Below, piece by piece: positions 19,559 to 38,430 of a DNA stretch of 64,000 nt (position 1 is its first letter; each line of letters opens with the position of its first letter). Source of the DNA: Labilithrix sp. GTDB lineage: Bacteria > Myxococcota_A > Polyangia > Polyangiales > Polyangiaceae. Position numbers and translations under genes: made by a program. The notes under the pieces were generated by a model. The model had not been told where the DNA came from, made no database searches, and saw only the letters and a list, made by a program, of their open reading frames with translations. The stretch spans positions 1,744,468-1,808,467 of the forward strand of contig JAHCIY010000002.1 of NCBI GenBank assembly GCA_026128965.1, in the 5' to 3' direction.

Positions 19559-19573
19559 TCGGGGTCTCTTACC

Positions 19574-19680
19574 CAACGTCGGGGGCTCCGCCCCCGACAC
19601 CCCCGCCCCAGACACGGCCCGGCGAAGACGCCGGGGCGCTTCGCGCCCGCTTTCGCGGCCGCTTCTGGGGCCCCGGTCGG
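19574..19680. repeat. REP-like palindromic intergenic element (copy 1)
   Basis: aacGTCGGGGGCTCCGCCCCCGACacccccgccccagacacg...cgcttcgcgcccgctttcgcggccgcttctggggcccc. The core is a perfect 8-bp stem. The same element recurs at 37868 and, inverted, at 38346-38421. Confidence 0.5.
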
Positions 19681-19689
19681 CGCGGCAGC

Positions 19690-20100
19690 TGCGTGCGAAC
19701 GCGACGCGGCAGACGCCTGCGTGCGCGACGCGGTAGACGCGTGCGAGCACGGCGCGCGGCAACGCGTGCGAGCGCGACGCGGCAGACGTCTGCGAGCGCG
19801 ACGCGGCAGACGTCTGCGAGCGCGACGCGGCAGACGTCTGCGAGCGCGACGCGGCAGATGCGTGCGTGGCGTCTTGCGGGCGCGGTCTGCGTGCGCGACG
19901 CGGCGGCTGCGTGCGCGGCGCGACGTCTGTGTGCGTGGCGGCGTGCGCGACGCGTCTGCGGACTGCGCCTGCGACGCGGCGCCTGCGTGCGCGGCGCGAC
20001 GTCTCGTGGCGGTGTCTGCGTGTGCGAAACGTGACGTGGGGTCTGCGTGCGCGGCGCGTCTGTGTGCGATGCGGTGTCTGCGTGCGTTTTTCTTAGCGCG
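19690..20100. repeat. Degenerate tandem repeat, 24-bp unit (agcgcgacgcggcagacgtctgcg)
   Basis: Four near-perfect copies at 19771-19866, flanked by diverged copies (gcgtgcgcgacgcggc..., gtctgcgtgcgcggcgcg...). The array lies in the 790-bp gap between convergent genes. Confidence 0.55.
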
Positions 20101-20348
20101 CACGACTCTCCAGTTCGCTGTGATGTCTTCGGTATGCGGCGTCGCGAGGATCTGCCGTTCCGCTACGCATCGCGGCCGCGTCCCAGGTACGGCTCCATCG
20201 CCGAGTCCACAACCCAGCCCCCAGCGGCCCACAACCAGCCCCAGCGGCCGCGTCCATCGCGAGCCGAGTCCACAACCCAGCCAGCCCGGCCCACCCCAGC
20301 ATCACGGCCAACCCAGCATCGTCGCCGGCGGCTGGCTGCGTGAGCGCC

Positions 20349-33569: not shown

Positions 33570-34094
33570 ATGAACGCCGCCCAGTTCCGCAAGCTGGCCC
33601 TCTCGCTCCCGAACACGGAGGAGGGTTCGCACATGGGCCACGCGGACTTCCGCGTGGGCGGGAAGATCTTCGCAAGCCTGACCGAGGACGAGACGAAGGC
33701 GTCCTTCAAGCTCCCCCTCGAGCTCCAGCTGACGCTCATCGACGACGAGTCTTTCGCCGGCCAATTCGCCCCCGCCGCCGGCGCCTGGGGCCGCAGCGGC
33801 TGGACCTACGCCCACCTCGCAAAGGTCACGGCGACGGTGATGAGGGCCCTCCTCGAGGACGCATACACCCTCGTATCGAAGGTCACGGCGAAGGGGAAGG
33901 TCGCGGCGAAGGCGAAGGTCGCGGCGAGGGGGAAGGGCTCGGCGAAGGGGAAGGGGAAGGGCGTGGCGAAGGGGAGGGTCGCGGCGAAATCGAAGGTCGC
34001 GACGCCAGCGAAGGTCGCGGCGAAGAGTGCAGCACCGGCGAAGGGCGCGGCGCCGGCGAAGCCGAAGGTCGCGGCGCCGCGAAGGTCGCGGTGA
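33570..34094 (+). CDS. YjbR/MmcQ-family (DUF419-like) DNA-binding protein with histone-H1-like Ala/Lys-rich C-terminal tail, truncated by a frameshift
   Basis: N-terminus MNAAQFRKLALSLPNTEEGSHMGHADFRVGGKIFASL followed by AKxK repeats. The repeat continues in the +2 frame to a TAG at 34241-34243 (KVAVTAKPKGVAKATVAAKAKG...), so a 1-nt indel near 34078 interrupts the tail. Confidence 0.5.
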   Translation: MNAAQFRKLALSLPNTEEGSHMGHADFRVGGKIFASLTEDETKASFKLPLELQLTLIDDESFAGQFAPAAGAWGRSGWTYAHLAKVTATVMRALLEDAYTLVSKVTAKGKVAAKAKVAARGKGSAKGKGKGVAKGRVAAKSKVATPAKVAAKSAAPAKGAAPAKPKVAAPRRSR

Positions 34095-34325
34095 CGGCGA
34101 AGCCGAAGGGCGTGGCGAAGGCGACGGTCGCGGCGAAGGCGAAGGGTGCGGTGACGGCGATGGCGAAGGTCGCGTCTCCGGCGAAGGGTGCGGCGATGGC
34201 GAAGGTCGCGGCGAAGACGGCGAACGTGAAGCGGGGTCGCTAGACTCCGGGCTCCGCCGCGCCGAGCGGCGAGGAGGGCGCCTGCTCGCGATCGTGAGTC
34301 TCCGAATGCCGTGCTCCTCGGGCGT

Positions 34326-34850
34326 TTGTACAACCCAGGTTGTGTAATCGATATGCGCAACCGAGGTTGTGCAATCCGCTCGTGGGCACGAGCTTCGGTG
34401 CGTCGGGGGGTGCGCGTGCTGGAGTCGTTGCACAACCTGGGGGTGAATTGGGATGCGCAACCGAGGATGTGCAGTCCTCGCTTACGGGCGTGAGCTTTCG
34501 GCGTGTCGGGCGTTGCGCGCGCTGGAGTCGTTGCACAACCTGGGTTGTGGAGTTGGGTGCGCAACCGAGGTTGTGCAGTCCTCGCTTGCGAGCGCGAGCT
34601 TCGGCGTGTCGAGCGTTGCGCGAGCGGGGTCGTTGCACAACTGGGTTGTGGAGTTGGGGTGCGCAACCGAGGTTGTACAGTTCTCGCTCGCCGGAGCGAG
34701 CTGTTGGTGTGTCGAGCGTCGCGCGAGTTGGAGCTGTTGTACAACCTGGGTTGCGAAACGAGATGCACAACCGAGGTTGTGCAATTCTCGCTCGCGGGCG
34801 CGAGCTTCGGCGTGTCGGGCGTTGCGCGAGCGGGGCCGCTACTGCGCGAT
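34326..34850. repeat. Tandem array, five units of about 103 bp, each with two CAACC-N2-GGTTG palindromes
   Basis: Units start at 34326, 34428, 34531, 34633 and 34737. Each unit holds TTGCACAACCtgGGTTGTGGA and TGCGCAACCgaGGTTGTGCAG dyads plus a ctcgcttgcgagcgcgag hairpin. The array lies between convergent genes. Confidence 0.7.
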
Positions 34851-36026
34851 GAGGTCGTTGCAGTCGACGCCGCCGGTCATGACGCGGACTTGGCCTTTCC
34901 ACTTCGAGCCGACCTTGAAGGTGGACCATTTTGCTTGTGGGAGGTCGCATGAGGCGGCGTCCTTCGACTTGGCGTCGGTGAAGAGGACTGTGTACTTCTC
35001 GGTCTTCGAGCCTTCGCGCTCGCAGCCGAGGCACGTGCCTCCCGTCACCTTCGTTACGGGCCAGCGTGGGGTGTCGCTGACGCTCGCGCCCTTCTCGGTC
35101 GCGGTGCGGGCGGTGCGCCACTCCGTTACGTCGATATCGCATTTGTCGTCGTAAACGGGAGTCTCCTTGTACTTGTCGGTGCACTCCCTCACCTCCTTGT
35201 ACGAGCCGTTGCCCAGGTCCTTCTTGCGCGTCGAGCAGGTCTGGCCGTCCTTCTCCCTCTTCGTGCCACGTTGCTCGCGGCGGCGTGAGACGACGCGCGC
35301 GCCGGCCGGGATCTCGTCGCACCACGTGCTCTTGCGGACGTTCTCGAAGCGCTCGATCCGGATGCTCCGCTCCCACGAATGGCCCGTCACCGCGAGCGCG
35401 GCCTCACGCTTCCAGAAGACCGCGACTAGGACGAGCACGAGGAGTAGCGCGAAGACGCCGCCGACGATGCCGAGGATCAGTCCCGCGCTGCTCTTCTTCG
35501 GCGGTGCGGGCTGGAAGCCCTGCGCCGCGCTCCTGAAGGGCTGCTGCGGATAGGCGCCGGGTGCGTGAGCACCGGGCGGATAGGCGCCGTGAGGATAGGC
35601 ACCGGGTGCGTGAGCACCGGGCGGATAGGCACCGGGTGCGTGAGCGCCGGGTGCGTGAGCACCGGCCGGATAGGCACCCGGCGGATAGCCGCCGGGTGGG
35701 GGGACGACGACGTCGGCTTGGCGCGCGACCTCGGCGCCCTTGTCGATGGGGCCGCCGCAGTTCGTGCAGCACTTGGCGGCGCGGGACATCGGCTGCCGGC
35801 ACGACGGGCACACCACGTCGGCGCCGACGTACGGGTGGTTCTTGACCGCGACCTTCTCGTGGTCGGGCGGGAAGTAGCGCGCGTTCGGATCCTGCGGCGC
35901 GCCGCAGCCGGCGCAGAAGCGATGCGTGACGCCGAGGAGCTTCTTCTGACCGCAGTACTTGCAGTCCCAGAGCATCTCGTAGACGGCTTCTTCTCCGTTC
36001 ATGCATCGCGAGTATCTCCGAGGCAC
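34839..36026 (-). CDS. Membrane protein with N-terminal zinc-ribbon, Pro/Gly/Ala/Tyr repeat region and C-terminal extracytoplasmic domain
   Basis: Zinc-ribbon cysteines (CKYCG...CAGCG; CPSC...CTNCG), a GAYPPGAHAP repeat about nine times, one TM helix and a Cys-containing C-terminal domain. The start could be Met1 (36026) or Met9 (36002). Confidence 0.5.
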   Translation of the reverse strand: MPRRYSRCMNGEEAVYEMLWDCKYCGQKKLLGVTHRFCAGCGAPQDPNARYFPPDHEKVAVKNHPYVGADVVCPSCRQPMSRAAKCCTNCGGPIDKGAEVARQADVVVPPPGGYPPGAYPAGAHAPGAHAPGAYPPGAHAPGAYPHGAYPPGAHAPGAYPQQPFRSAAQGFQPAPPKKSSAGLILGIVGGVFALLLVLVLVAVFWKREAALAVTGHSWERSIRIERFENVRKSTWCDEIPAGARVVSRRREQRGTKREKDGQTCSTRKKDLGNGSYKEVRECTDKYKETPVYDDKCDIDVTEWRTARTATEKGASVSDTPRWPVTKVTGGTCLGCEREGSKTEKYTVLFTDAKSKDAASCDLPQAKWSTFKVGSKWKGQVRVMTGGVDCNDLIAQ

Positions 36027-37743: not shown

Positions 37744-37865
37744 GGGCGCCGTCCTTAGCGCACACTCGCCGATTGTCGACGTCCGACGCGCAAATCGACG
37801 ACCCGCCCTGCAGACAGGTGCAAGATCCTGCCGAGATCACAGGAGAAAATTTCCTGAAACTTGGT

Positions 37866-37990
37866 TACTCAACGTCGGGGGCTTCGCCCCCGACACCCCC
37901 ACCCCAGACACGACCCTCGCGCTTCGCGCTCGGGGCGCTGCGCGCCCGCTTGCGCGGCCGCTTCTGGGGCCCCTCGCGCGCGCCGCGGGT
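37866..37990. repeat. REP-like palindromic element (copy 2)
   Basis: aacGTCGGGGGCTTCGCCCCCGACacccccaccccagacacg...gcggccgcttctggggcccc. Near-identical to the element at 19574. Confidence 0.5.
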
Positions 37991-38129: not shown

Positions 38130-38430
38130 CTTCGCGTGAGTGCGAGGGTCGGGCGCGACGCAGCGGGGAAAGCGGGGGCCCCGCGACCGCGGCCGCCCCA
38201 GCGGTTGCGAAGCGCCCCGAGCGCAGCGACGTCCGTGCGCGACGCAGCGGGGGAAGCGGGGGCCCCGCGACCGCGGCCGCCCCAGCGGTTGCGAAGCAAC
38301 CCGAGCGCGAAAGCGCGAGGGCCGTGGTCGCGGGGCGGGGGTGTCGGGGGCAGAGCCCCCGACCATGAAGAGAGGGCCGTGGTCGCGGGGCGGGGGTGTC
38401 GGGGGCAGAGCCCCCGACCATGAAGAGACT
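38130..38430. repeat. Composite repeat nest: 2 x about 70-bp direct repeats plus 2 x about 52-bp inverted REP copies
   Basis: Direct repeats at 38146-38215 and 38221-38290 (cgcgacgcagcgggg.aagcgggggccccgcgaccgcggccgccccagcggttgcgaagc). Two tandem copies of gagggccgtggtcgcggggcgggggtgtcgggggcagagcccccgaccatgaaga are the reverse complement of the REP core. Confidence 0.5.

Follow-up and report, generated by a model that had tools for sequence, protein, structure and literature searches.

What kind of element is formed by a tandem array of palindrome-bearing units on an otherwise ordinary bacterial chromosome, and does it serve the genes beside it? We address this question for a five-unit array in Labilithrix sp. 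(assembly GCA_026128965.1), which lies within a 64-kb stretch of contig JAHCIY010000002.1; this whole stretch is referred to below as the window, and coordinates are given within it. An initial annotation had described the array and had proposed several functions for it. We tentatively favour, with a confidence that falls somewhat short of even, the reading of the array as a minisatellite of hairpins that is specific to the lineage and was amplified locally, and which, if active, would act like a cluster of repetitive extragenic palindromes (REPs) or bacterial interspersed mosaic elements (BIMEs) at the 3′ ends of transcripts. This preference follows from the position of the array in a gap between convergent genes, its absence from relatives, the repeat-prone character of the region, its hairpins, the lack of associated genes, and the existence of an architectural analogue on a metagenome contig.

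Architecture and position of the array

Tandem Repeats Finder (TRF) describes the array at 34326-34831 as 4.9 head-to-tail copies of a 103-bp period (81% matches, 4% indels, score 609). Together with unit alignments and a covariance model built from the array's five units (R1), this defines five units of 102-104 bp on the plus strand at 34326-34838, with bounds at 34326-34427, 34428-34530, 34531-34632, 34633-34736 and 34737-34838; the initial annotation had given five ~103-bp units with the same starting positions (34326, 34428, 34531, 34633 and 34737), which proved correct. Each unit contains, in order, dyad A, a short linker, dyad B, a GC hairpin, a small G-U-rich hairpin and a junction segment. 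Dyad A has the form TTGYACAACC-NN-GGTTGYG.. and dyad B the form TGCRCAACC-GA-GGTTGTRCA, both dyads of a unit following the general form TGYRCAACC-NN-GGTTGYRCA; their centres are separated by 26-27 bp.

Site A of unit 1 reads TTGTACAACC-CA-GGTTGTGTAA (34326-34347), and its counterparts lie at 34428-34447, 34531-34552, 34633-34653 and 34737-34758. Two of these are broken, in unit 2 by an indel (CAACCTGGGGGTG at 34433) and in unit 4 by a 1-nt deletion in the core (CAACTGGGTTG at 34638). Site B, located by pattern searches, reads TGCGCAACC-GA-GGTTGTGCA in unit 1 (34354-34373) and recurs at 34454-34473, 34558-34577, 34660-34679 and 34764-34783, the last being a perfect 9+9 dyad; in unit 2 its core (34458-34469) carries a mismatch, GGATG. 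The ten palindromes originally counted were thus somewhat generous: seven of the ten cores are exact, site B of unit 2 carries the core mismatch just named, and indels disrupt site A in units 2 and 4. When up to one mismatch is allowed, the CAACC-NN-GGTTG core occurs eight times in the window, always within the array, against 0.5 occurrences expected, and none of 100 shuffles reached eight; the 20-mer TGCRCAACCNNGGTTGTRCA (up to three mismatches) likewise has eight positions, all in the array, with 0.01 expected. Conservation differs between the segments of the unit. Site B is the most conserved, with 91% pairwise identity against 45-84% elsewhere (hairpin 3, 84%; sites A and hairpin 2, 79% each; junction, 67%; the 6-column linker, 45%).

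The array occupies the 595-bp gap that separates two convergent genes at their 3′ ends, a YjbR/MmcQ-family gene on the plus strand and a zinc-ribbon gene on the minus strand, an arrangement that had been overlooked in the initial annotation. Since both neighbours point into the array, it cannot be their promoter or operator, and the earlier suggestion of an operator array for the neighbouring genes falls away, as the array sits at the 3′ ends of both of them. Within about 15 kb on either side, Pfam searches identified genes for TerC, a cNMP-binding protein, a glucose/sorbosone dehydrogenase (GSDH), a NUDIX protein, a CDP-alcohol phosphatidyltransferase, a gamma-glutamyltranspeptidase (GGT), a peptidase M90 and an ECF sigma factor, whereas none of the genes annotated there encodes ParAB, a transposase, a RAYT (REP-associated tyrosine transposase), a reverse transcriptase or a MarR protein. 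The neighbourhood is ordinary chromosomal housekeeping, and the array is not part of a gene system.

Several element classes could be set aside on anatomy. The array is not a CRISPR, as the initial annotation had recognised, because the whole 103-bp unit repeats and unique spacers are absent. An integron attC array was rejected on its anatomy, there being no cassettes, and an array of type III toxin-antitoxin RNAs (ToxI-like) was rejected as both flanking genes point into the array. Nor is it a coding repeat, since the lengths of the units (102, 103, 102 and 104 bp) do not preserve the reading frame.

Relatives of the locus and the search for further copies

Two syntenic relatives, L179 and L052, were recovered by means of homologs of the zinc-ribbon protein, whose orthologs are 74-76% identical in L179 and 60-71% identical in L052; the L052 locus also keeps the cNMP-binding and TerC genes. 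In both relatives the zinc-ribbon and YjbR genes share an overlap of ~45-50 bp at their 3′ ends, leaving neither intergenic DNA nor an array. Their YjbR orthologs (122 aa in L179 and 103 aa in L052) end in a short basic tail (AAKARRSPRRRS) and lack the AK-rich tail found in Labilithrix sp., and the dyad was absent from all of the relatives' loci examined. Since the genes overlap in two relatives that have neither the array nor the AK tail, ~960 bp of DNA is specific to the source lineage; it comprises the repeats of the AK tail and the 595-bp gap that contains the array, and nearly all of it is tandemly repeated sequence. The presence of the array thus varies between related genomes, and the link to the adjacent YjbR gene, which had been raised as a speculation, finds no support, as both syntenic relatives retain YjbR and the zinc-ribbon gene without it. 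The sole second assembly (L058, GCA_019637155.1) does not differ from the window anywhere in the gap.

The sequence also offers a hint as to where the unit came from. The zinc-ribbon gene ends in codons (TGCGCGATGAGGTCGTTGCA, 34842-34862) that resemble the unit-to-unit junction (TGCGCGAGCTGGAGTCGTTGCA; 84% for the family), and the local alignment score of 23 between the junction and these 3′ codons was reached by five of 300 shuffles. This weakly suggests that the amplified segment may originally have included the 3′ end of the zinc-ribbon gene, as in a local duplication. The 82 bp of unique sequence that separate the AK-tail reading frame from unit 1 (34244-34325, read from the sequence) have no significant similarity to the unit, 125 of 300 shuffles scoring as well.

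We then asked whether the unit exists elsewhere. Neither the 103-bp unit nor the dyad was found outside the array in the window, either by pattern searches or with R1; the five units score 101-116 bits with this model and the next best match in the window 18 bits, and on 32 other loci it gave palindrome-level matches only, of at most 33 bits. Since there are no extra copies in 64 kb, a high-copy family (~500 or more per genome) is excluded, which does not extend to a low-copy one. Across a collection of 185,579 species genomes (one genome per species, the source genome not being included), the exact 20-bp dyad occurs in 47 stretches, with one dyad position per stretch; neither a multi-copy dyad nor a second array was found in the collection, and no Labilithrix is among the 47 matches. 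A BLAST search with the whole gap gave no match in collections of plasmids (72,556 plasmids) and phages, and a viral scan returned three matches, all unrelated. The initial annotation had asked whether the unit might be a high-copy dispersed repeat; no sign of one was seen in the window, in the relatives' loci or in the genome, plasmid and phage collections. The array is thus confined to a single locus in the available data.

The core of the dyad, by contrast with the unit, is generic. A metagenome scan with a double CAACC-NN-GGTTG core gave at least 120 matches, and those listed include at least four classes of palindrome, among them GTAG-type REP pairs (Xanthomonadales-like), tGTCAACCTAGGTTGACa double sites and attaCAACCTAGGTTGtaat sites. 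At L018 (1408-1555), in an Alloprevotella metagenome-assembled genome of 59% GC, six copies of CAACCTAGGTTG lie in a tandem repeat of 22 bp.

Hairpins and competing explanations

The array has considerable potential to fold. As RNA, the region 34244-34860 has a predicted energy of -344.9 kcal/mol on the plus strand (z -10.9) and -250.6 kcal/mol on the minus strand (z -3.9), and RNAalifold, applied to the five units, predicts 29 pairs with 96.5% of cells paired. Three stem-loops emerge. In the first, site A is complementary to site B, giving a predicted A:B hairpin of 18 bp. The second is the GC hairpin, with a 6-bp stem and a 4-nt loop on the plus strand (34378-34393, 34480-34495, 34584-34599, 34686-34701 and 34790-34805); it had already been noticed in every unit, and it is indeed fully paired in all five (30 of 30 cells), with compensatory changes from G-C to A-U in unit 2 and from C-G to U-A in unit 1, together with a single C-G to U-G wobble. 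The third is a G-U-rich stem of 5 bp, placed by RNAalifold at the same position in every unit (GCGUG...UGCGC at 34604-34621 on the plus strand in unit 3), which is 100% paired and displays one-sided (wobble) changes only. Over the plus strand as a whole, G-U pairs occur at seven paired positions and C-A mismatches at three.

In the minisatellite reading that we favour, a segment of ~100 bp with dyad A, dyad B, the GC hairpin and the small G-U-rich hairpin would have been amplified head to tail, probably by slippage or unequal recombination, in DNA newly arisen between genes whose 3′ ends overlapped in the ancestor. Transcripts that extend beyond either of the two genes, and especially beyond YjbR on the plus strand, would then be expected to fold into a row of stable stem-loops, which may stabilise 3′ ends and hinder read-through into the gene opposite.

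Several observations weigh against this reading. The covariation, which is suggestive and not statistically decisive, comes from five related copies only, and two compensatory pairs were reached by 73 of 500 shuffles. The asymmetry between the strands could reflect strand-biased C-to-T mutation, the region being G+T-rich, and this composition could likewise account for the surplus of G-U pairs on the plus strand. No canonical intrinsic terminator was found in the array, whose hairpins are without U tracts, and across 2.8 kb a single weak terminator-like site was detected (minus strand, 34783-34764), compared with a mean of 1.4 in shuffled sequence. In addition, site B is better conserved than the unit as a whole and equals a putative MarR-type operator sequence used elsewhere, and a purely structural or neutral repeat predicts neither of these.

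This last point leads to an alternative that we consider possible, if doubtful, in which the eight to ten dyads bind a dimeric winged-helix regulator of a particular MarR subfamily, or one of like specificity, and so act as a sponge, or as a roadblock or insulator. The initial annotation had remarked that the dyads would suit dimeric regulators, and the genome matches bear this out: ~35 of the 47 are expected by chance by our own estimate, and in 13 of them the identical 20-bp palindrome sits 10-80 bp from the start codon of a gene of one MarR subfamily (Pfam MarR_2, with a conserved C-terminal RRVRPP tail), which is usually divergent from a SnoaL-like (SnoaL_2) or PNPOx-like gene. These 13 loci (L002, L007, L012, L014, L016, L020, L021, L022, L028, L032, L034, L041 and L043) comprise five from Myxococcota (Archangium twice, Hyalangium, Polyangiaceae and Sorangium) and eight from Actinobacteria. 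Three further matches in Microbacteriaceae (Cryobacterium and Herbiconiux; L031 4968-4987, L042 2603-2622 and L035 1711-1730) lie upstream of IclR genes, beside an ABC permease, implying that at least two families of regulator have the palindrome at their promoters. The natural sites are often paired, 14-28 bp apart, a spacing that includes that of the two dyads in the array unit, and it is site B that is the best-conserved segment of the unit. From these associations we infer that TGCACAACC-NN-GGTTGTGCA is probably the auto-operator of a widespread, uncharacterised MarR subfamily. The dyad was not found as a published MarR operator in the literature searched, and the operator of SCO3205 differs from it (TTnAAnnnTCAA; PMC3737563).

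Several points speak against regulator binding at the array itself. A tblastn search with MarR proteins found no homolog in the 64-kb window, and no MarR of the operator-linked subfamily bearing the name Labilithrix was present among 86 matches, or among the best 120 of 338 matches to a Myxococcota profile, in a protein database that includes the proteins of the source genome, itself metagenome-assembled. Furthermore, the array lies at gene 3′ ends and not at a promoter, three of its ten dyads have damaged cores, it is absent from relatives, and its CAACC-NN-GGTTG core is shared with GTAG-type REPs and several other classes of palindrome. The specific proposal that the array is a chromosomal regulator sponge, in which eight to ten high-affinity operators for a MarR-type or similar winged-helix dimer, amplified in tandem within a transcriptionally neutral tail-to-tail gap, would buffer the free regulator, or a roadblock that would insulate the convergent genes, appears unlikely to us.

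That the array might instead be one cluster of a true family of REPs, BIMEs or miniature inverted-repeat transposable elements (MITEs), with palindromes mobilised by a RAYT-type transposase and dispersed genome-wide, we consider improbable. Its palindromes do lie in a convergent intergenic gap, an array of REP pairs at L109 has a like architecture, and the source genome carries another dispersed hairpin element. In the 64 kb, however, there are no other copies of the array unit, compared with four of the genuine dispersed element; the dyads are without a GTAG/CTAC foot, the 47 genome-scan matches include no Labilithrix genome, and no Y1-transposase gene was seen within ~15 kb on either side.

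It is more improbable still that each ~100-nt unit, with its three stem-loops, is transcribed from the plus strand as an independent structured RNA, either small or derived from a 3′ untranslated region. Folding is far stronger on the plus strand than on the minus strand, hairpin 2 has its compensatory changes, and G-U pairs on the plus strand exceed C-A mismatches. Against this, neither the units nor the sequence upstream of them yielded a sigma-70-like promoter, and Rfam 15 gave no match in the window at gathering scores, with only noise (E 1.8-6) in 34100-35000 when E values up to 10 were admitted. Nor was a homolog found beyond the array locus, in the window or in the 32 other loci, so that there is no cross-species covariation, and relatives lack the array. 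The Rfam search also ruled out known RNA families, including curated myxobacterial small RNAs and retron RNAs.

Least credible of all is the initial suggestion that the array has a centromere-like or nucleoid-organising function, with a partition protein or the H1-tailed YjbR protein bound to it, since, although the iterated dyads are laid out like sopC/parC-type arrays and YjbR proteins are annotated as putative DNA-binding proteins whose AK tail would bind DNA non-specifically, no ParA, ParB or SopAB genes occur in the annotated neighbourhood (~15 kb on either side, a housekeeping context), the dyad is unrelated to the parS consensus, orthologs of YjbR occur in relatives without the array, the AK tail is in turn an expansion of repeats, frameshifted and specific to the lineage, and nothing similar exists in the plasmid collection.

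Flanking genes, other repeats and likeness to known systems

The YjbR/MmcQ-family gene upstream (33573-34094, plus strand; Pfam YjbR, E 2.2e-11) was correctly assigned in the initial annotation, together with its AK tail, and the description of it as frameshifted was fair. Its AK-rich tail is encoded by 18/36-bp repeats that TRF places at 33878-34216; the YjbR frame breaks at 34094, and an AK-rich open reading frame (ORF) goes on in another frame at 34091-34243. The frame break of the AK tail was also placed at about 34080-34094. This tail may represent a recent extension of the protein, possibly in decay, and not a conserved domain. The convergent gene (34839-36026, minus strand; KIT84_19740, Labilithrix sp.) encodes a double-zinc-ribbon protein with a single transmembrane segment, which is 100% identical to the NCBI protein of a metagenome-assembled Labilithrix sp.; the deposited protein starts eight residues later than the 395-aa ORF. 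This protein contains 15/30/45-bp repeats at 35546-35698 coding for PGAHAPGAY-type (PGAHA/PGAY) motifs, which are absent from both orthologs.

The same stretch of genome carries several further tandem expansions besides the 103-bp array. Another convergent gap contains a second array, with ten copies of the 24-bp unit CGCGGCAGACGCCTGCGAGCGCGA at 19681-19925 and a degenerate continuation to ~20086, after which come CCACAACCCAGCC-type repeats at 20207-20320. One gap holds two very recent duplications, of 84 bp (two copies, 38142-38308, 92-95% identity) and of 55 bp (two copies, 38317-38426, 100% identity). A dispersed element of ~105 bp, unrelated to the array, is present as two long copies that are 92-95% identical (19569-19674 and 37865-37973) and again at 38337-38363 and 38392-38418 on the minus strand; the 64 kb contain four copies of its hairpin core, GTCGGGGGCTNCGCCCCCGACACCCCC, against none expected, and the core is found in inverted orientation within the 55-bp duplication. 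Every copy of this element abuts other tandem repeats, a pattern which suggests that it belongs to a MITE/REP-like family that may seed minisatellites. Nothing relevant was found in the literature on Labilithrix repeats.

If the minisatellite reading is right, the array adds another palindromic minisatellite to the intergenic DNA of a GC-rich myxobacterial genome that is prone to repeats, and matters little in itself. It could find use as a variable-number tandem repeat (VNTR) marker for strain typing, and as an example of new intergenic DNA between genes that once overlapped. If it were true that a regulator occupies the dyads, the array would be a clean test case for titration arrays; to our knowledge, hardly any natural tandem arrays that serve as decoys for transcription factors, or titrate them, have been described in bacteria. 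A by-product of the analysis is the computational assignment of a candidate operator to the uncharacterised MarR subfamily with the RRVRPP tail, which is directly testable.

When set beside known systems, the array resembles the sopC site of F, the parC site of R1 and chromosomal parS clusters in having iterated tandem repeats, which in those systems are bound by protein, but it differs from them in its lack of partition genes, its chromosomal context, its unrelated sequence and the absence of a match in the plasmid collection. With MarR operators, which are pseudo-palindromes of 16-20 bp and often occur twice per promoter, it shares an operator-like spacing and the presence of two sites per unit, and its dyad has the same sequence as the palindromes near the promoters of one MarR subfamily in Myxococcota and Actinobacteria; unlike MarR operators, it lies away from promoters, has no cognate regulator in the window or among the Labilithrix-named matches, and strings together ten tandem sites where one or two are usual. 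Like the intergenic minisatellites or VNTRs exemplified by the mycobacterial interspersed repetitive units (MIRUs), it consists of head-to-tail units, of 50-100 bp in that class, that border on the ends of the genes on either side; as a family, MIRUs are scattered across many loci, and long dyads are not their building blocks, whereas the array is known from one locus. The REPs and BIMEs of Enterobacteria, Pseudomonas and Xanthomonadales differ from the array in their GTAG/CTAC foot, their dispersal and their associated RAYT, none of which was seen in the array, in the 64 kb or nearby, respectively, and the array is absent from related genomes. They are like it in combining tandem imperfect palindromes with linkers at convergent 3′ ends, in a period of ~100 bp and in forming strong hairpins, and the position of its 20-22-bp dyads in a convergent intergenic gap is one that is typical of REPs and BIMEs. 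The metagenome contig PJUE01000608.1, one of the matches of the double-core scan, provides an instance of a like design (L109, 2297-2704): four 102-bp units (96% matches), each combining a GC hairpin with a pair of GTAG-type REPs (gtagacGCCAACCTTGGTTGGC ... GCCAACCAAGGTTGGCcactac), are flanked by a small ORF and an outer-membrane efflux gene in convergent orientation. This locus is not a homolog of the array (16.5 bits with R1); it is an architectural, BIME-like analogue of it.

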